Shown in pieces: positions 1 through 27,818 of a stretch of 40,486 nucleotides of DNA. The position numbers were made by a program, and so were the translations under genes. Source of the DNA: a virus (taxonomy: Duplodnaviria; Heunggongvirae; Uroviricota; Caudoviricetes); the IMG/VR virus record IMGVR_UViG_2526164661_000012. One strand, given 5' to 3'. The stretch's first letter is position 1; each line of letters starts with the position of its first letter. The notes beneath the pieces are model-generated. The model searched no databases. It saw only the letters and a list, made by a program, of their open reading frames with translations, and was not told where the DNA came from.

Positions 1-1053
1 TTACGGGGTAATGCCAACCGCTGCCGCCACTTTGTCGCCACTTGGCAGCGTTGCCAGAGGATTGAAACGGAGCGCCGTTTCCAGATGATCCGGTGCCAGA
101 TGTGCGTAACGCATCGTCATTTTTATATCGTGATGTCCGAGAATTTTTTGTAAGGCCAGGATGTTTCCACCCGACATCATGAAGTGCGCCGCAAACGTAT
201 GGCGCAGAACGTGTGTGAGTTGACCGCGAGGGAGCACGATAGACGTTTTTTCCATCACGGATAAAAATTGAAAATAGCAGTCTGTGAAGAAATTGAACCC
301 ATCAAGCGCCATGATCTCTTCGTAAAGCTCTTTACTGATAGGGATGCTTCTGTTTTTCTTCCCCTTCGTTCTTACAAATGTAATTCGGTATTTGGTCACC
401 TGTGAACGAGTAAGATTTACGGCTTCTCGCCAGCGTGCGCCTGTGCTTAAGCATATCTTAACTACCAGTGCCAGAATTGGGTCCTGACGTTTGCAATCAG
501 CCAGTAATTCAACAATCTGCTCATGGGTAAGCCATGCCATCTCTTTTTCAGCGATGGTGAATTTTCGCATGTTCTCCAGTGGGTTCGGATACGACCATTC
601 GCCCAGGCGGGATAGTTCGCTAAAAACACTACTAAGATAGCTTTGCTCCAGGTTAATGGTGACCGGGCTTGCTCCTTTCTTCCATTTTTCGCTGAAGTAG
701 ATCTCTCCTGTCAGGCGTTTATCTCGATAGTGGGCAAACATTTTAGAGGTGAGATCGGTTGCAAGGGGATTGCCCAGAGCGTCAACTATCAACAGCAATT
801 TGTCATAGACATGCTGCCCAGCTGTCAGAGATTTACCATGTAGTTTGAACCATAGCTCAACCACGTCTTTCAGTGTTCGACGATCCACTGATTCACCCAG
901 CCAGGGCTTTGCTTCGGTTTCTTCCATCGTGTGACGCTCAAAAGCCAGAGCTTCACCTTTGGTGGCGAATTGTTTACGCACACGACGTCCACTACGTCCC
1001 GCGGGGTAACATTCGCATAGCCATTTTCCTGTGGTGAATTTTCGTACTGCCAT
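1..1053 (-). CDS. int: Tyrosine integrase, P2/186 family
   Basis: ORF track 1..1131 minus; likely start Met at 1053 (MAVRKFTTGKW...); C-terminal catalytic region (LRHTFAAHFMMSGG...KMTMRYAHL) typical of tyrosine recombinases; stop codon at 1..3; sits at prophage edge as in P2/186. Confidence 0.9.
   Translation of the reverse strand: MAVRKFTTGKWLCECYPAGRSGRRVRKQFATKGEALAFERHTMEETEAKPWLGESVDRRTLKDVVELWFKLHGKSLTAGQHVYDKLLLIVDALGNPLATDLTSKMFAHYRDKRLTGEIYFSEKWKKGASPVTINLEQSYLSSVFSELSRLGEWSYPNPLENMRKFTIAEKEMAWLTHEQIVELLADCKRQDPILALVVKICLSTGARWREAVNLTRSQVTKYRITFVRTKGKKNRSIPISKELYEEIMALDGFNFFTDCYFQFLSVMEKTSIVLPRGQLTHVLRHTFAAHFMMSGGNILALQKILGHHDIKMTMRYAHLAPDHLETALRFNPLATLPSGDKVAAAVGITP
19..40. repeat. 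Putative attL core (cgctgccgccactttgtcgcca), 21/22 identical to 37633..37654
   Basis: Direct repeat found by eye at both prophage ends; overlaps 3' end of int, as in P2-like phages; flanks on either side do not match. Confidence 0.55.
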
Positions 1054-1142
1054 AAAAAATGCCCTCCAGTGGAGAGCATTTTTACTGTATGTATAACCAG
1101 TGTCAATGTATATGAATTGAGATTCATACATTGAGGTTAATT

Positions 1143-1631
1143 TTATCTTTCTACTTCCCAGCGTAGAGATTGCATTAACATAGCATAAATATTGAACAGG
1201 AAAGTTTTTAAAGTTAATACAAGGAACACTGCACTGCTTCCTACGAGTATATATAGTATTTGAACTCCAACAACTTTAGTGCAATGAGAAAACATTAAGG
1301 CTCTGAGTAATTTTGTAGCCAATCCATTTTCTTGCCCGAAAAGAAGGACTAAAAGATAGATAACAGACCAAAATATGAAATATATAAATACTCTCATAAA
1401 TACGCCATAAACATATTTTAAGTAACTTATCCCGTATAATGGATGCTTATACTCCATTAATGAAAGGAAAAGTTCAGGTTTATTTATGGTTGCAAATATT
1501 GTAAATCCAGTAATTAAAAAACCTAATGTTGTTGTAGTGAATCCGAATACTAAAGGTGTCCATTGTCTAATAGATGAAATTAACTCTGGTGATGAAGATA
1601 GACAAAAAGCATTAATAGATAATAATATCAC
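1143..1631 (-). CDS. Hypothetical multi-pass membrane protein (lysogeny-operon cargo)
   Basis: 162-aa ORF in AT-rich DNA; several hydrophobic segments (LVFGFTTTTLGFLITGFTIFATI, IYFIFWSVIYLLVLLF, ILYILVGSSAVFLVLTL); same strand as cI and int. Confidence 0.55.
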   Translation of the reverse strand: MILLSINAFCLSSSPELISSIRQWTPLVFGFTTTTLGFLITGFTIFATINKPELFLSLMEYKHPLYGISYLKYVYGVFMRVFIYFIFWSVIYLLVLLFGQENGLATKLLRALMFSHCTKVVGVQILYILVGSSAVFLVLTLKTFLFNIYAMLMQSLRWEVER

Positions 1632-1748
1632 TAATAATAATGTGAAATAAAAGTCAAATGAATTGACCTTTATTTTTTAGTTAATTTGTAAACATCATGC
1701 AAAGATCGCTCTTTGGTCAGATCTTCTGGGTTGAATGTATATTTCATA

Positions 1749-2213
1749 CTATAGCCACCTAGAAATTATTGATGTTAACTTGGAAAAAATTTTAGTATAA
1801 TCTTCACGTTCTGGAATAATAATATTTCCTGCATCCTTTAATTCTGTGAATGCAGAATACGCCTCTTGAGCAGCTCTTTCCAAATCAGAACTAAGTTGTG
1901 GCCTTGATGCTTTTAGAGTAAAACTATCATTATTCCCTGATAGCCTTGCTCCGTGTTCATCTTTACCACTTATAATTACTTTAGAGTTGGCCATTCGGGT
2001 TGCACTTGTTGTTTTTTGAATGACGGCCTCAGAATTTAAACCATCTTCATTTTTATTTGTGTATACTAATTGAGCTTTACTACTATTAAGTTCTTCTTTT
2101 TCTTGTTCAATTTTCCTCCAGAAGCCATCAAGAGATATATTTTCACTATTTGTTGGCAATAACTCAATTGATAATCTATTAACAACAGAAAAGAGTTCAA
2201 CAAAATTGCTCAA
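1749..2213 (-). CDS. Hypothetical protein (lysogeny-operon cargo)
   Basis: 154-aa ORF in AT-rich DNA, co-oriented with cI/int; no recognisable motif. Confidence 0.5.
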   Translation of the reverse strand: MSNFVELFSVVNRLSIELLPTNSENISLDGFWRKIEQEKEELNSSKAQLVYTNKNEDGLNSEAVIQKTTSATRMANSKVIISGKDEHGARLSGNNDSFTLKASRPQLSSDLERAAQEAYSAFTELKDAGNIIIPEREDYTKIFSKLTSIISRWL

Positions 2214-2257
2214 TGATCTTGGGTCTGTTAAGGGGGTAACCCGTAATTTGGGGGCTC

Positions 2258-2797
2258 CTAGTTTACGATAAATATCTTTTTTATACAGTCGATCAATGTA
2301 TGATTTTTTCTTTCTAATTCTTTTATTTTTTTTACTTCGTAATCCACAAAAGAATTATATCGCTGTGCAAGGCAATACTTGCTAGTATTTTCAAATTCTT
2401 CTAGGGTAGGGGCTCCAGAAACCTCTTTGCAAAGCATTAATCTGTGCTCATTAAGCATAAGAATAAAAATAGAGCTGGGGTGACTTTCTAGCGTCCTGTG
2501 ATCTCGAATTAATTGACCATCTTGAAATATTTGATCTCGTTTAAATATGGTCTTTTTTATAATGCGGCCACACAATGCAATTGTTGGAACTATAGGACCA
2601 ATAAAATCTGAATCTGTAGTATCTAACGTAATAATTTTTGTGTCAGTAAAGAAATATTCTGTATCTTTAAATTTTCTAACGTATTTTTGTGCGAAAAATG
2701 AAGGAAAAACAATGCAATCAAAAGCATCTAAGAGAACTTTGTCCTCTCCAAAATTTAAGGTATAGTTTGCAAATTCAATAGTTTTCGTAAAGCTCAT
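2258..2797 (-). CDS. Hypothetical protein (lysogeny-operon cargo)
   Basis: 179-aa ORF starting 2 nt after the stop of the repressor gene (2800), implying co-transcription; AT-rich; no recognisable motif. Confidence 0.55.
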   Translation of the reverse strand: MSFTKTIEFANYTLNFGEDKVLLDAFDCIVFPSFFAQKYVRKFKDTEYFFTDTKIITLDTTDSDFIGPIVPTIALCGRIIKKTIFKRDQIFQDGQLIRDHRTLESHPSSIFILMLNEHRLMLCKEVSGAPTLEEFENTSKYCLAQRYNSFVDYEVKKIKELERKNHTLIDCIKKIFIVN

Positions 2798-2799
2798 TG

Positions 2800-3741
2800 T
2801 TAAACCCTTTTTCTAATTATTCCTTTAACTTTATTATTAAATTCCAAATCTTCTTTATCGCATTCAAAGCTATATTTTGTGTTTTCAACGCGGATGCGAT
2901 TGTTTGGAAGTTTAAATATGTCTCTAAAAGTAAATTCTCCGTTAATAGATACTAACCATAGACCATCGCTAAGATACTCCTCTTTGCTAATGATATATGA
3001 ATCATTTGCGGAATTAACTATATAGGGATGTTTTAAATTTTGAGGTAAAATTTCGCTCGAAACGATTAATTCTCTTTGATCAGTAAGTTTGCCGTCACGT
3101 AGATCATAGCAGTCTAATGTAAGCAACCCACTTAGCTTTGTTTGATTGGAATGCCCCTTACCAAAAGATAACCACTCGAGAGACACTCCTGTTTCTAAAC
3201 AGCATTGGATGATCCAGTCTGCCGGAAAAATGTCTCGCATGTATCGTGTAGCTAATGTGCTTTTTGAGATACCAAGGTGATCGGCTAAGGCTTGGCGCGT
3301 TTTGTAACCGTAAGCCTTAACAATTCGCTCTATTGCTGCTTTACCCCCTCGAGTGAAATCCATGTGGTTTTCATTATCGAACTTTATCGTGGGGGTGTGA
3401 ACTTCATTGCAAAATTCATCTGCAGACTGTTTTTCAGCATGCCGTTCTGGCGAAGGAGCTGGCACTCCTTCTTCAGCATCTAAACCAAATGCTAACCATT
3501 CGATTGATGCGCCAGTTTCCATTGAACATATAACAACCCAATCAGCAGGGAAGGTATCGCGTGCATATCTGTTAGCCATTGTACTTTGTGAAATACCAAG
3601 GTGGTTACAGAATGCTTGGCGTGATTTGAAACCATAGGCCATGAGTATTCTCTCAATGACTTTTTGCCCTCCTCGATTCTGCATGACCATGGCTTTCAGA
3701 TGATCTTCAATATGGCGAAATGTGATTTTATTAGTTGACAT
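2800..3741 (-). CDS. cI: CI-type immunity repressor with tandemly duplicated HTH domain and S24/LexA-like C-terminal domain
   Basis: 313 aa; two homologous HTH repeats (GGQKVIERILMAYGFKSRQAFCNHLGISQSTMANRYARDTFPADWVVICSMETGASIEWLAFG vs GGKAAIERIVKAYGYKTRQALADHLGISKSTLATRYMRDIFPADWIIQCCLETGVSLEWLSFG); C-terminus aligns by eye to the LexA S24 domain (SINGEFTFRDIFKLPNNRIRVEN vs ARIDDEVTVKRLKKQGNKVELLPEN); divergent from apl/cII and co-oriented with int. Confidence 0.7.
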   Translation of the reverse strand: MSTNKITFRHIEDHLKAMVMQNRGGQKVIERILMAYGFKSRQAFCNHLGISQSTMANRYARDTFPADWVVICSMETGASIEWLAFGLDAEEGVPAPSPERHAEKQSADEFCNEVHTPTIKFDNENHMDFTRGGKAAIERIVKAYGYKTRQALADHLGISKSTLATRYMRDIFPADWIIQCCLETGVSLEWLSFGKGHSNQTKLSGLLTLDCYDLRDGKLTDQRELIVSSEILPQNLKHPYIVNSANDSYIISKEEYLSDGLWLVSINGEFTFRDIFKLPNNRIRVENTKYSFECDKEDLEFNNKVKGIIRKRV

Positions 3742-4600: not shown

Positions 4601-4774
4601 ATGCTTACTAAAGAACCATCATTTGCATCGCTGCTGGTAAAACAAAGTCCGGCAATGCACTACGGTCACGGCTGGATCATGGGGGAGGATGGTAAACGCT
4701 GGCATCCGTGCCGTTCACAAGATGAATTGCTGGCAGAACTATCTACGAAAAAAGGGGGAACAAATGGCTATTGA
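4601..4774 (+). CDS. Hypothetical small early protein
   Basis: 57-aa ORF (MLTKEPSFASLLVK...) with GAGGTG Shine-Dalgarno; overlaps next gene start; position corresponds to 186 fil/dhr region but no similarity established. Confidence 0.35.
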   Translation: MLTKEPSFASLLVKQSPAMHYGHGWIMGEDGKRWHPCRSQDELLAELSTKKGGTNGY

Positions 4775-5105
4775 AGGCGCTGCGGCGACTGTTCCATTAA
4801 GCCCCGGTGAACGCCTGAGTGGACTTAATCACATAGCGGAATTAAGGGCGAAAGTTTTTGGCCTGAATATTGAGTCAGAGCTTGAGCGGTTTATTAAAGA
4901 TATGCGTGATCCACGGGATATCAATAATGAACAAAATAAACGGGCACTGGCTGCTATATTCTTTATGGCAAAAATTCCGGCTGAACGTCATAGCATCAGC
5001 ATTAATGAGCTGACCACTGACGAAAAGCGGGAGCTGATTAAAGCAATGAATCATTTTCGTGCAGTGGTGAGCTTATTTCCCAGACGGCTAACCATGCCGA
5101 ATTAA
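4764..5105 (+). CDS. Hypothetical early protein
   Basis: 113 aa from internal Met (MAIEGAAATVPLSPGERL...), AAGGGGGA ribosome-binding site upstream. Confidence 0.5.
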   Translation: MAIEGAAATVPLSPGERLSGLNHIAELRAKVFGLNIESELERFIKDMRDPRDINNEQNKRALAAIFFMAKIPAERHSISINELTTDEKRELIKAMNHFRAVVSLFPRRLTMPN

Positions 5106-5633: not shown

Positions 5634-6483
5634 GCACCATCCTGAAATGGGCGGGAAATAAAACTGCCATAATGTCCGAACTGAAAAACATCTTCCTGCT
5701 GGCCCGCGACTGGTTGAACCTTTCGCGGGTTCCTGTGCTGTGATGATGGAGACGGATTATCCCAGCTATCTGGTTGCGGATATTAATCCTGATTTAATCA
5801 ACCTCTATAAAAAGGTTGCCGCTGATTGTGAATCGTTTATATCTCGCGCCAGAGTTTTATTTGAGATCGCAAACAGGGAGGTGGCTTATTACAACATAAG
5901 GCAGGAGTTTAATTACTCAACTGAAATTACTGATTTCATGAGAGCGGTATATTTCCTGTATCTCAATCGTCACGGTTACCGTGGTTTATGTCGCTATAAC
6001 AAGAGCGGGCATTTCAACATTCCCTACGGTAATTATAAAAATCCGTATTTCCCTGAAAAAGAAATTCGCGCATTTGCAGAAAAGGCCCAGCGAGCAACGT
6101 TTATCTGCGCCAGCTTTGATGAAACGCTGGCGATGTTGAAGGCGGGGGATGTGGTGTATTGCGATCCGCCGTATGACGGTACGTTTTCCGGCTATCACAC
6201 TGATGGTTTCACTGAAGATGACCAGTATCACCTGGCATCCGTTCTTGAACATCGAGCATCTGAAGGACATCCGGTCATTGTTTCTAACAGTGACACGTCT
6301 TTGACCCGGTCTCTTTATCGTAATTTCACTCACCACTACATCAGGGCGAAACGCAGCATCGGCGTTGCAGCGGGGGAGGGAAAATTTGCAACAGAGATGA
6401 TTGCCACTAAATCTGCTAATTGGTTTAGTGCCGATTTTAGTAGGGGACGTGACTCTACTGTTATTTTCGGGGTGCAAGTGTGA
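5630..6483 (+). pseudogene. dam: DNA adenine methyltransferase (Dam-like, DPPY motif), N-terminal ~19 codons out of frame
   Basis: ORF 5740..6483 carries the DPPY catalytic motif (VYCDPPYDG) but lacks the N-terminus; ATG at 5630 (ATGA overlap with upstream stop) encodes MSTILKWAGNK... and runs to a stop at 5741..5743; adding one A to the A5 run at 5684..5688 restores ...SELKKHLPAGPRLVEPFAGSCAV..., the AdoMet-binding motif. Confidence 0.75.
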
Positions 6484-20944: not shown

Positions 20945-21383
20945 ACTGCAGAAGGTGGACGACTGGCTTAGTGCCTTACTGGCGAATCTGGAACCAGTCG
21001 CAAGAAGCCGCATGATGCGCCAGCTGGCGCAGGAACTGCGCCGGACACAGCAGCAGAATATCAGGATGCAGCGCAATCCAGATGGCAGCAGTTATGAACC
21101 GCGCAAGGTCACGGCGCGCAGTAAAAAAGGCCGCATCAAACGTCAGATGTTTGCAAAGCTGCGCACCACCAAATACCTGAAAACCGCCGCCAGCGCCGAC
21201 TCTGCCAGCGTACAGTTTGAAAGTAAGGTGCAGCGCATTGCCCGCGTTCACCATTATGGCCTGCGCGATCGCGTCAGCCGCAAAGGACCGGAAGTGCGTT
21301 ACGCAGAGCGTCGTTTGTTGGGTCTTAATGGTGAGTCTTACGTTCTAACTCTTGATATATTGAATAGATTCCTTCTGTCTTGA
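20937..21383 (+). CDS. S: Tail completion protein gpS-like
   Basis: 148 aa, GTG start overlapping R stop; MAELQKVDDWL... resembles P2 S by recall. Confidence 0.75.
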   Translation: MAELQKVDDWLSALLANLEPVARSRMMRQLAQELRRTQQQNIRMQRNPDGSSYEPRKVTARSKKGRIKRQMFAKLRTTKYLKTAASADSASVQFESKVQRIARVHHYGLRDRVSRKGPEVRYAERRLLGLNGESYVLTLDILNRFLLS

Positions 21384-21843
21384 ATTCACCATATGCCCAA
21401 TGAATTGCATTTTTTTGTTCAGTCAGAATATATTTCCTAACTTTTTTAGAATAGTGAATGGTCAGTATAAAACCCAAAGAAATCCATAATAGAATAAATA
21501 TGGTTGTTGGGGCAAAGGAATAGATAAAGAATTTGTCTTTAACGAAATTCTTGACTTCTTCATCAATGTAAGCATTCCCTTCATCAGTGGTTAGTAGTTT
21601 ACAAAGAATTTCTTTATGCTCGATAGTTAATGATTTGTACTTCTCTGTACTGGCAGAGGATGACTCTTCGCAATCATCCTTTGATATTTCCCAATCAGGA
21701 GTGGTTAATATTGTAGCTGCAGTCGCCAGTTTTTTTGACATATAAAATGATTCACCGGATTTTATCCAATAAAGCAATGTGCTATTTGGTGGGGTTCTAA
21801 TGGCTTGGATGAAAACTGGACCAAAAATATAAATTGCACACAA
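21325..21843 (-). CDS. Hypothetical membrane protein in AT-rich insert between S and V
   Basis: 172-aa ORF (true start may be the internal Met MSKKLATAAT...); one strong hydrophobic helix (FFIYSFAPTTIFILLWISLGFILTI); opposite strand to the late operon. Confidence 0.4.
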   Translation of the reverse strand: MCAIYIFGPVFIQAIRTPPNSTLLYWIKSGESFYMSKKLATAATILTTPDWEISKDDCEESSSASTEKYKSLTIEHKEILCKLLTTDEGNAYIDEEVKNFVKDKFFIYSFAPTTIFILLWISLGFILTIHYSKKVRKYILTEQKNAIHWAYGEFKTEGIYSIYQELERKTHH

Positions 21844-21905
21844 AAAAAGAAGTGAAAAGAGAACCGTGATTGATTTTTCAGCCCATGTGATAGTAGGCAG
21901 CCTTT

Positions 21906-22130
21906 TTAATGATATTCGTATAAGAAAAAATTTAATATAAACGCAGGTATTCCTGATTTTTTCAAAATTACATCATGAGATTTTCTATATTTGAATAGTG
22001 CTCTTATAACTATCGTCACCAAAGTTATAACAGCTCCAATAATGGAAATCCATGCGGCAAGTGCCGCTGCCGGGGTGTTTAAAAATTCAGCATTAAATAT
22101 ATTAGAACTTATTGGATTCATAACACTCAT
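21906..22130 (-). CDS. Hypothetical small membrane protein in AT-rich insert
   Basis: 74-aa ORF with one transmembrane helix (AAALAAWISIIGAVITLVTIVIRALF); same orientation as 21325..21843. Confidence 0.35.
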   Translation of the reverse strand: MSVMNPISSNIFNAEFLNTPAAALAAWISIIGAVITLVTIVIRALFKYRKSHDVILKKSGIPAFILNFFLYEYH

Positions 22131-24063: not shown

Positions 24064-24661
24064 TCTGCTGCCACCAGGTTCAACGCTACTGGAGCGCCGA
24101 CTGGCGCAGACCTGTAGCGGGATTTCTGATCTGCAGGTGCCGCTGCGTGACTTGTGGAATCCGGCAACCTGTCCGGTCAGTTTCCTGCCTTATCTCGCTT
24201 GGGCGTTCTCTGTGGATCGCTGGGACGAGGGCTGGACTGAAAGCGTCAAACGTCAGGTGGTGAAGGATGCTTTTTATATTCATCAGAATAAAGGAACCAC
24301 CAGTGCCGTGCGGCGGGTGGTGGAACCGTTCGGATTCCTGATCCGCATTATTGAGTGGTGGCAGACCGGCGAAACACCGGGCACGTTTCGCCTGGATATC
24401 GGCGTGCAGGATCAGGGCATCACTGAAGATACCTATCTGGAACTTGAGCGACTGATAAGCGATGCCAAACCATGTAGCCGTCACATGATCGGCATGTCCA
24501 TCAATCTGCAGACCAGCGGCCCGCATTGGGTGGGAGCCGCCAGCTATCTTGGCGAAGAAATCACGATCTATCCGTATATCAACGAAACAATTATTTCCGG
24601 CGGCACCGCGCATGAAGGCGGGGCGGTCCATGTTATTGACACAATGAGAGTGAATCCATGA
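24056..24661 (+). CDS. I: Baseplate protein gpI-like
   Basis: 201 aa following J. Confidence 0.85.
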   Translation: MNSLLPPGSTLLERRLAQTCSGISDLQVPLRDLWNPATCPVSFLPYLAWAFSVDRWDEGWTESVKRQVVKDAFYIHQNKGTTSAVRRVVEPFGFLIRIIEWWQTGETPGTFRLDIGVQDQGITEDTYLELERLISDAKPCSRHMIGMSINLQTSGPHWVGAASYLGEEITIYPYINETIISGGTAHEGGAVHVIDTMRVNP

Positions 24662-26049
24662 GCACAAAATTTTATACCCTGCTGACGGATATTGGCGCGG
24701 CGAAACTTGCCAGCGCCGCCGCGCTCGGTGTGCCTTTAAAAATTACCCATATGGCGGTCGGCGATGGCGGCGGAACATTACCAACGCCGGACGCAAAGCA
24801 GACAGCACTGGTAAATGAGAAACGCCGGGCTGCGCTGAATATGCTCTATATCGACCCGCAGAACAGCAGCCAGATTATTGCTGAACAGGTGATCCCTGAA
24901 AACGAGGGCGGTTGGTGGATACGTGAAGTGGGCTTGTTTGATGAGTCCGGGGCATTGATTGCCGTGGGTAACTGCCCGGAAAGCTATAAGCCGCAACTGG
25001 CTGAAGGCAGTGGGCGTACCCAGACCGTGCGCATGGTGCTGATTACCAGCAGTACGGGCAATATCATCCTGAAAATCGACCCTGCTGTAGTGCTGGCAAC
25101 CCGCAAGTATGTGGATGACAAGGCACTGGAGCTGAAGGTGTACGTGGATGACCTGATAGCAAAACATCTTGCCGCACTGGACCCGCATTCACAGTATGCA
25201 CCCAAAGAAAGTCCGACATTTACCGGAACCCCCAAAGCGCCAACGCCAGCGGCGGGGAATAATACCACTCAGCTTGCGACCACCGCATTTGTTCAGGCGG
25301 CACTGACGGCCCTGATTAATGGTGCGCCAGCCACGCTGGACACGCTGAAAGAAATAGCCGCAGCCATTAACAATGACCCGAAATTCAGTACCACCATTAA
25401 CAATGCGCTGGCACTGAAAGCGCCGCTGTCGAGTCCGGCACTCACCGGAACGCCAACAGCCCCCACGGCGGCGCAGTCGGTCAACAATACACAGATTGCC
25501 ACTACGGCTTTTGTGAAATCGGCGATTGCGGCAATGGTGGGTTCTGCACCTGCGGCACTGGATACACTGAACGAACTGGCGGCGGCACTGGGGAATGATC
25601 CGAACTTTGCCACGACAATGCTTAATGCGCTGGCAGGTAAACAACCGCTGGACAATACGCTGACTAATTTGAGTGGAAAGGATGTAGCTGGTCTTCTCAC
25701 ATACCTTGGTTTGGGAGAAGCCAGATATGTCATTCAGCGAGGAGCTAATGTCAATGGTGCATGGATACGCTGGTCAGATGGTGCAATAGAAGTATTTGGA
25801 ACTGGTGGTTCCAATGATAATGGGCTGGCTAAAGTCGTTTATCCAATTGCACTACCTAAGCTTTCACGTTTTATCAGCATAGCGGAAAGAATAAGAACAG
25901 ATTACGAGGCCACACCTAATAACGTTCACGTTTCAATGATCGTGGATGACCAGGTCAGTAATACAGGTTTTTATGTCCGCTGCCAGATGTACGACGGAAG
26001 ACCATCAACAAGTGCTTTTTCCTGGAGAGTTTATTGTGCGCCTGTTTAA
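24658..26049 (+). CDS. H: Tail fibre protein gpH-like; C-terminal ~110 codons lie inside the invertible segment
   Basis: 463 aa; N-terminus MSTKFYTLLTDIGAAKLA...; repeated ...NTQIATTAFV...LDTL.E.AAA..NDP.F.TT..NALA.K.PL blocks; crossover site within the gene at 25694..25719. Confidence 0.85.
   Translation: MSTKFYTLLTDIGAAKLASAAALGVPLKITHMAVGDGGGTLPTPDAKQTALVNEKRRAALNMLYIDPQNSSQIIAEQVIPENEGGWWIREVGLFDESGALIAVGNCPESYKPQLAEGSGRTQTVRMVLITSSTGNIILKIDPAVVLATRKYVDDKALELKVYVDDLIAKHLAALDPHSQYAPKESPTFTGTPKAPTPAAGNNTTQLATTAFVQAALTALINGAPATLDTLKEIAAAINNDPKFSTTINNALALKAPLSSPALTGTPTAPTAAQSVNNTQIATTAFVKSAIAAMVGSAPAALDTLNELAAALGNDPNFATTMLNALAGKQPLDNTLTNLSGKDVAGLLTYLGLGEARYVIQRGANVNGAWIRWSDGAIEVFGTGGSNDNGLAKVVYPIALPKLSRFISIAERIRTDYEATPNNVHVSMIVDDQVSNTGFYVRCQMYDGRPSTSAFSWRVYCAPV
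25694..25719. repeat. DNA-invertase crossover site (left), TTCTCACATACCTTGGTTTGGGAGAA
   Basis: 26-bp site resembling gix/hix/cix half-site consensus (TTnTCnnAAACC); inverted relative to site at 27148..27173; encodes GLGEA in both fibre frames. Confidence 0.55.
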
Positions 26050-26233
26050 TCCTGTTACTTTGACTGAAGTAATCCCCGGTCTTCATGACGTGACCGGGGC
26101 TGTGGAATTACCAGAAGATAACTGGTTTTTTACTGCATCTGAAATCCCTGAAGGAATGGAAATATCTGTTAACGAGAAGGGCGAACCCATTCTGATTGAG
26201 ATTAAACCATCTCAGGTGGAACTGGCCAGATAA
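26036..26233 (+). CDS. Putative short tail-fibre assembly/chaperone protein for the currently expressed fibre
   Basis: 65 aa from GTG overlapping the H stop; position equals P2 G / Mu U; no sequence similarity established. Confidence 0.4.
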   Translation: MRLFNPVTLTEVIPGLHDVTGAVELPEDNWFFTASEIPEGMEISVNEKGEPILIEIKPSQVELAR

Positions 26234-26468
26234 CCCCCGGCGCGGTGCTGGTATCTGCTTCCATCACCGCGTCGATATTACCAACATCATATTCAGTCAT
26301 TTCCGGTTCCGGTGGTGCTATAAACTCTCCGTCAGAATAGAACCAACCGACGCCTGCATCTATATGATCAACATTTATAATTTCGCAATTAGAGAATAAA
26401 TCACCCTCTCCATCCCAGATAATAATATTTTTCACCACGCCATGTTCAATCAGAGCAAAATTACTCAT
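26202..26468 (-). CDS. Tail-fibre assembly protein-like (alternative, inverted orientation)
   Basis: 88 aa ending ...EADTSTAPGVIWPVPPEMV, resembling the conserved Tfa C-terminus (DTSTAPDIEWP); 3' end overlaps the plus-strand tfa convergently. Confidence 0.5.
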   Translation of the reverse strand: MSNFALIEHGVVKNIIIWDGEGDLFSNCEIINVDHIDAGVGWFYSDGEFIAPPEPEMTEYDVGNIDAVMEADTSTAPGVIWPVPPEMV

Positions 26469-27147
26469 CAGGCATACTCCTCAACAATAACTATTCCCGG
26501 GGCACCGTCACCTCCCGATTGAGCCTCACTTCCAGCAGGTGCGCAGGCTCCGCCTCCGCCAGCACCAAAGCCCTCAGCTTTACCACCACCACGTCCTCTG
26601 AATGATGAAGAACTTGCACCACCTATACCGCCTGAACCTAATGGTGTATCCCCCCCGGTACCACCTGCTACAGCTTTAACAGAGATAACCATTGCTCCTG
26701 GTGTTTTTGCACTACAGCGAAATGCTCTTAGTACAGTGCCGGACGATGTCGGACTGGCACCCCATGAAATACCCTGAATATATGATGTGTTTGCAGATGC
26801 TCCCCCCGCGCCACCGCCTGTACCACCAGGTGCAGTTATCATGGAACCGAAATAAGTTGTGCCACCTTCACTACCTGAATTTCTTCCGGCTCCCCCCCTT
26901 TACCTGCAGCACCGATAATAACGTTGACTTCGAAATCATTATCAACCTCGAAAAATGCTTCAATAAATGCGCCGCTCAATCCAGCTCCGGCTGTTGCCTG
27001 CTGATTTTCTGTTGTTTCAGGAACCCCACCGCCGCCGCCGCCACCACCAGAGGCAATGACCCTTATCTTTTTTGTCCCTGGTGTTGGGATATATTTTCCA
27101 GAACTTTTAAAAATATTCGTGTTTAACAAACGACCAGAGAATCTGGC
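26468..27147 (-). pseudogene. Alternative tail-fibre C-terminal cassette (Gly-rich), split by a frameshift in a G7 run
   Basis: Track ORFs 26839..27201 and 26468..26842 are consecutive in different frames; frame at crossover site encodes GLGEA as in H; one extra G in the run (plus-strand C7 at 26892..26898) joins them. Confidence 0.5.
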
Positions 27148-27173
27148 TTCTCCCAAACCAACGTTTATGAAAA
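27148..27173. repeat. DNA-invertase crossover site (right), TTCTCCCAAACCAACGTTTATGAAAA
   Basis: Near-perfect inverted copy of the 25694..25719 site, about 55 bp upstream of the invertase start. Confidence 0.55.
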
Positions 27174-27228
27174 TGCAGAGATAACGGCTAACTGGCATCA
27201 TCCCCGGTTTTTATTCAGGGGATTGATC

Positions 27229-27792
27229 ATGCTTATTGGCTATGTACGCGTGTCAACAAATGACCAGAACACTGATTTGCAACGTAATGCACTGAACTGC
27301 GCGGGATGTGAGCGGATTTTTGAGGACAAAATCAGTGGCACTAAGTCCAACAGACCGGGGCTGAAAAAACTGCTCAGGACACTATCGGCAGGAGACACGC
27401 TGGTTGTCTGGAAGCTGGACAGGTTGGGGCGCAGTATGCGGCATCTTGTTACGTTGATAGAAGAGTTGCGCCAGCGAGGTGTGAATTTCCGAAGCCTGAC
27501 TGACAGTATTGATACCAGTACCCCAATGGGCCGTTTCTTTTTTCATGTCATGGGTGCCCTGGCTGAAATGGAACGCGAACTGATAGTTGAACGTACCAGG
27601 GCGGGGCTTGCTGCAGCTCGCGCCAAAGGCAGAGTAGGTGGACGCCGTCCTAAGTTGACTACCGAACAGTGGGCACAGATTGGACGCTTACTCGAGGCCG
27701 GAGAATCAAGACAGCGTATTGCACTGATTTTTGATGTGGGTGTTTCCACAATTTATAGAAAATTTCCGGCAAATAAGAGTAATGAATCGTAA
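27229..27792 (+). CDS. Serine DNA invertase, Hin/Gin/Pin/Cin family
   Basis: MLIGYVRVSTNDQNTDLQRN...VVWKLDRLGRSMRHL...FFHVMGALAEMERELI..., very close to recalled e14 Pin; track ORF starts at TTG 27223, ATG at 27229 preferred. Confidence 0.9.
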   Translation: MLIGYVRVSTNDQNTDLQRNALNCAGCERIFEDKISGTKSNRPGLKKLLRTLSAGDTLVVWKLDRLGRSMRHLVTLIEELRQRGVNFRSLTDSIDTSTPMGRFFFHVMGALAEMERELIVERTRAGLAAARAKGRVGGRRPKLTTEQWAQIGRLLEAGESRQRIALIFDVGVSTIYRKFPANKSNES

Positions 27793-27818
27793 GCGTCAAC
27801 GGAGCACCGTATTGACGC

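Follow-up and report, generated by a model that had tools for sequence, protein, structure and literature searches.

Does the alternative tail-fibre cassette of this prophage truly carry a frameshift, or does the break exist only in the deposited record? The question is raised by a run of seven cytosines on the plus strand (26892..26898), which is read as G7 on the coding minus strand of the cassette. The window, by which we mean the whole 40,486-nucleotide stretch of DNA that was analysed, is a P2-like prophage and is 100% identical over 21 kb to AIGT01000013.1, a draft contig of E. coli DEC10E. This strain is an O26:H11 calf isolate (PMC7693793). The original prediction left three readings of the run open, namely, decay, a slippage switch, and a sequencing error. 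Our comparisons favour the sequencing error and lend no positive support to a selected switch. Judged from the pattern of differences between the record and its near-identical relatives, G7 is most probably a pyrosequencing-type homopolymer undercall of the draft assembly.

The cassette is one of two alternative C-termini of an invertible tail-fibre module, which has the following parts.

24658..26049, plus strand: tail fibre gene H as assembled, an ORF of 463 aa with Pfam Phage_tail_fib at residues 1–150
25694..25726, unstranded: left crossover site (hix/gix/cix-like), a 33-nt inverted repeat inside gene H
25706..27161, unstranded: invertible segment of 1,456 bp, encoding both alternative C-termini of the fibre, each followed by a small ORF
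26036..26233, plus strand: small ORF 3′ of the expressed cassette, 65 aa, hypothetical protein WP_001236016.1 in relatives
26202..26468, minus strand: small ORF 3′ of the alternative cassette, 88 aa, "phage tail protein" WP_000064420.1 in relatives
27141..27173, unstranded: right crossover site, a 33-nt inverted repeat
27229..27792, plus strand: serine DNA invertase, 187 aa, with Pfam Resolvase (2.7e-53) and HTH_7 (1.4e-15)

Gene H, whose homologues in relatives are annotated "phage tail protein," joins a constant N-terminal part to the C-terminal cassette that is currently oriented for expression. At present it reads into the other C-terminus, and the cassette with the glycine-rich (Pfam Gly_rich_2) ending lies in the silent orientation. 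The two inverted repeats, 25694–25726 and 27141–27173, are 88% complementary. Two Logan contigs (L025 and L026) match 25706..27161 exactly, from end to end, and in four relatives (L017, L033, L034, and L029) the segment is flipped between identical flanks, which exchange exactly at 25706 and 27161. Relatives with identical flanks have an H protein either of 463 aa, as here, or of 580 aa with the Gly_rich_2 ending. Among 35 complete E. coli genomes with the cassette, the query together with its invertase-side flank, that is, the silent arrangement, was matched in 16 and not in the other 19. In one of the four relatives with the flipped segment, NJZB01000006.1 (L029), the flank proximal to the invertase stands at the distant end of the segment (positions 1–80), though the invertase is on the opposite side. 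This layout is the expected output of a short-read assembler if the culture that was sequenced contained both orientations.

An adjacent serine recombinase, inverted sites of which one lies inside the fibre ORF, and the existence of both orientations identify the locus as a switch of the Gin/Cin/Pin/Hin type. The invertase would flip the 1,456-bp segment of what appears to be an ordinary, intact switch of this kind, so that the constant part of H would be joined either to its present C-terminus (the 463-aa protein) or to the glycine-rich one (the 580-aa fibre). The Mu G segment with Gin, the P1 C segment with Cin, and e14 with Pin have the same design: a serine invertase adjoins a segment with inverted sites inside the fibre gene, the crossover sites are ~26 bp long, and each of the two alternative C-termini is followed by a small ORF of its own. 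By their position, the 65- and 88-aa ORFs are presumably the assembly partners of their respective cassettes; a Pfam search with the 88-aa ORF (26202..26468) returned no match. Both orientations occur in nature in those systems, as they do here, and inversions in P2-like prophages have already been detected in E. coli E2348/69 (PMC4272514). Unlike the Mu, P1, and e14 modules, the present one has Gly_rich_2 as its alternative C-terminus, short downstream ORFs (65 and 88 aa), and an ISEc47 element on the stop codon of the invertase; none of these features is unusual for the class. The same cassette was also seen outside the P2-like setting. In E. coli JNEC-KY208, the glycine-rich cassette, with G7, is in the expressed orientation within a non-P2 tail module adjoining pinE, which indicates that the cassette moves between phage types.

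Within the alternative cassette the reading frame is interrupted as follows.

26839..27201, minus strand: proximal half of the alternative fibre C-terminus, a 120-aa ORF that begins outside the invertible segment
26892..26898, minus strand (C7 on the plus strand): the G7 run, which is G8 in intact homologues and codes for Gly-Gly-Gly
26468..26842, minus strand: distal half of the alternative fibre C-terminus, a 124-aa ORF, out of frame in the record
26650..26656, minus strand (C7 on the plus strand): a second G7 run in the same cassette, in frame here

The proximal ORF, whose exact product is deposited as EGW95791.1/WP_001379639.1, reads through G7 and terminates 17 codons past the run; the distal ORF sits in the −1 frame relative to it. 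Addition of one G to the run fuses the two into a 244-aa ORF that is identical at 244 of 244 positions to an intact coding sequence, WP_235784204.1 (E. coli 214-4, LR4). A single Gly_rich_2 domain spans residues 38–241 of the repaired protein, across the break, at 33 bits (Pfam cut-off, 24.3 bits). The single domain and the full-length identity show that one gene has been cut in two and that the halves are not two chance ORFs. The C7 run, the two ORFs, and the repair thus all agree with the initial claim that the silent fibre C-terminus is split at G7 and rejoined by G8. The two G7 runs of the cassette are the only G/C runs of at least 7 in the 40-kb window; the second is shortened to 6 in three other assemblies (C21, 89-3156, and L056). 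Elsewhere in the cassette, the poly-Gly stretch encoded by GGN repeats at 27024–27048 has ten consecutive glycines in P0009 and P0012, as opposed to eight, so this repeat is also length-variable, in frame.

G8 is the ancestral and commonest state of the tract. Approximately 28 of the 35 complete E. coli genomes have G8 and three have G7, and the tract is 8 nt long in all 17 loci from IMG/VR and metagenomes, with a synonymous GGT interruption in three of them. For the haplotype of the window, intact forms were found on 26, 15, and 8 contigs, as against a few contigs with G7 forms. Exact-protein look-ups also placed G7 tails (...GKGGEPEEIQVVKVAQLISVP) on no fewer than four additional sequence backgrounds, and two backgrounds had G9 tails (...GKGGGSRKKFR). 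Tract length therefore varies among assemblies (G7, G8, and G9), and many of the G7 calls come from error-prone assemblies. The three complete G7 genomes were considered as instances of recurrent real slippage, an interpretation that is weakened by two of them: in C21 and 89-3156 the cassette has lost single bases at three more sites, which marks them as error-prone assemblies. The third, JNEC-KY208, has no other indel in the cassette. On the same haplotype as the window, G7 is present in NJZB01000006.1, where the sheath gene is intact, and in Logan contigs from SRR5330924 and ERR4899330; these records amount to five samples in all and have no other indels. A gapped-pattern scan of GTDB representative genomes gave no match, and in the phage collection the match was limited to the last ~70 bases of the query, which cover the right crossover site and the invertase-side flank. 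Complete genomes can have homopolymer errors of their own: at the runs that are A8 and A7 in the window (39295–39312), E. coli 214-4 reads A7 and A6, and its aspartate:alanine antiporter is annotated as frameshifted.

The closest relatives of the window can be recognised by an insertion sequence.

27789..30328, minus strand: ISEc47 (IS66 family), with an 8-bp target duplication, AATGAATC, at 27781–27788 and 30329–30336

ISEc47 has inserted at the final codons of the invertase gene. The end of the element supplies the last codon and the stop, and only the terminal proline is lost. Its junction is absent from all complete RefSeq E. coli genomes, and the lineage of the window was for this reason reached through exact-protein look-ups. 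The IS-altered 187-aa invertase led to the same insertion in six further assemblies, seven with the window, and an insertion common to seven assemblies is a real lineage marker. Four of the IS-bearing assemblies come from other sources (L017; PGBJ01, comprising L032/L052/L058; Logan SRR254190, L033; and JXBV01, comprising L034/L057). They show zero substitutions over ~4.6 kb around the cassette, and all four have G8. Among the IS-bearing contigs of the DEC project, the window and AIHL have G7, and AIHM has G8.

A comparison with these outside relatives over ~33 kb shows 2 to 6 substitutions in the window, together with eight one-base homopolymer contractions and zero expansions. Contractions thus outnumber substitutions in a comparison of nearly identical sequences. 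They are located at the following positions.

1672: T7 to 6
2325: T9 to 8
4747: A7 to 6
5683: A6 to 5
21924: A7 to 6, splitting the DUF6216 gene
26891: C8 to 7, the G7 of the fibre cassette
28345: T5 to 4, breaking the IS transposase gene (tnpC)
30809: A7 to 6, splitting the tail sheath gene

Two of the outside assemblies compared with each other differ by 8 substitutions and 1 indel. The sister assemblies of the DEC project show the same class of error at different sites: there are five such deletions in AIHL, four in AIHN, and five in AIHM, in sets of runs that overlap but are different, and the T9 run has lost a base in every one of the four DEC assemblies. Under-calling does not affect every long run, as A8 and A7 at 39295–39312 lie in an intact 561-aa ORF (37867..39552).

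The contractions break or shorten several genes beyond the fibre cassette. Within ISEc47, tnpC has T4 at 28346–28349, as against T5 in the intact copy. The other two split genes are listed below.

21325..22130, minus strand: DUF6216 cargo gene, flanked by phage genes S and V, split at A6 (21925–21930)
30486..31657, plus strand: tail sheath gene FI, which A6 at 30810–30815 (A7 in relatives) divides into parts of 112 and 278 aa

The DUF6216 gene has A7 and is intact, at 268 aa, in five relatives from other sources. The sheath A7 run is a recurrent site of miscalling or mutation. The identical 112-aa sheath fragment appears in 111 blocks of the protein collection, in P2-like prophages with quite different fibre modules, and many of these records are early draft or error-prone long-read assemblies. 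Compared with JXBV01 and PGBJ01, the window has more broken or shortened genes within 1143–2797, 4689–5105, and 5740–6483: a 201-aa ORF, a 349-aa DUF4747 protein, Fil, and a Dam-like methyltransferase, all affected at A/T runs.

Assemblies built from 454 pyrosequencing reads miscall homopolymer length. Such miscalls are contractions only, depend on run length, are scattered differently among sister assemblies, and are missing from other sources, and the differences described here have the same properties. Contractions only, run-length dependence, random scatter within the project, and absence elsewhere are the signature of undercalling and are unlike inheritance. Most probably, the assembly under-called its long homopolymers, as data of the pyrosequencing type do, and the strain itself is without the frameshift; the glycine-rich cassette would carry the G8 coding for Gly-Gly-Gly where the record reads G7. 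A particular parallel is DG131-3, which lacks the IS and is of a different serotype yet has three contractions (21924, 26891, and 30809) in common with the window. DG131 was assembled with Celera from 454 Titanium FLX reads only (PMC3491183). The sequencing platform is thus known for DG131; for DEC10E, we infer that it was sequenced through the same 454/Celera pipeline, in which case G7 would be artefactual.

The main competing explanation is a genuine slipped-strand mutation: DEC10E would truly be G7, with a neutral or tolerated loss-of-function frameshift at the position most prone to mutation in an unexpressed cassette, and inversion of the segment would then yield a truncated fibre of 456 aa. 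Several observations suit such an event. Every other G/C homopolymer of the prophage is shorter than G8, other assemblies have G7 and G9 alleles on several backgrounds, and G7 stands without other indels in NJZB01, in the SRR5330924 and ERR4899330 Logan contigs, and in JNEC-KY208; the silent cassette of a resident prophage is also probably under weak selection. We nevertheless consider a real mutation in DEC10E unlikely, since the closest outside relatives are all G8, seven more contractions of this kind are found in the window, where substitutions number only a handful, and three of the contractions recur in an assembly made from 454 reads only, which is not the closest relative of the window. 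Distribution of the alleles points the same way. The frame is indeed shifted with respect to intact homologues, as in a pseudogene, but its inheritance is not congruent with lineage markers: G7 and G8 occur in all four combinations with presence or absence of the IS, and again in all four with the alleles of SNP 26406, which indicates that the state of the tract is not simply inherited. The decay reading of the original prediction is improbable, since G7 is in conflict with both markers and with the G8 of the nearest outside relatives. A history of nested decay, in which G7 was followed by sheath A6 and then by the IS (as L029, L028, and the window might suggest), was rejected because IS-bearing relatives are G8.

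Two further explanations give the run a function. Under one, it is a selected contingency locus, a phase-variable G tract by which the alternative fibre would be switched ON or OFF stochastically, over and above the inversion. The run is an in-frame homopolymer whose length toggles the frame between G7 and G8, assemblies include both shortened and lengthened forms of it (G7 and G9 beside G8), and the state of the tract is homoplastic. There is also a precedent: hypermutable polyG tracts reportedly switch receptor-binding genes of Campylobacter phages (Sorensen et al. 2021, Cell Rep 35:109214, as cited in PMC10877375), where, as here, a G homopolymer lies inside a fibre or receptor-binding ORF and a change in its length shifts the frame. 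In contrast to that system, the host here is a mismatch-repair–proficient enterobacterium and the off-allele is probably an artefact; many of the off-alleles come from demonstrably error-prone assemblies. Selection on the tract is unsupported as well. In 20,000 synonymous codon shuffles of the glycine-rich ORF, a G run of at least 8 appeared with P = 0.12, so the run itself is unremarkable, and synonymous GGT interrupts it in the three loci mentioned above; it is neither longer nor better conserved than composition and codon usage predict. A contingency function therefore appears very doubtful, and it is scarcely less improbable that the G8 run is truly hypermutable in P2-like prophages, with ON/OFF switching of one ending superimposed on the choice made by the invertase. 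Under the other explanation, the G7 form is expressed by recoding, through −1 ribosomal or transcriptional slippage on the G run. By sequence logic, a −1 slip on GGG GGG G would restore the frame, but the run contains no in-frame canonical slippery heptamer and most homologues are plainly in frame with G8; for the latter reason programmed frameshifting was dismissed, and recoding has next to no credibility.

With homopolymer undercalling as the preferred reading, the locus is mainly a caution. Within 40 kb of this draft genome, homopolymers make eight genes or intergenic runs seem frameshifted or shortened; among them are the spare fibre cassette and the genes for the tail sheath, a cargo protein, and a transposase. 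Read literally, these breaks suggest a decaying, defective prophage and invite stories of layered switches. As far as comparison with independent assemblies can tell, the prophage has probably suffered no damage other than one IS insertion. If polymorphism of the G run, as observed in other assemblies, were real and frequent, it would modestly extend polyG variation of receptor-binding genes from Campylobacter phages to enterobacterial P2-like prophages.
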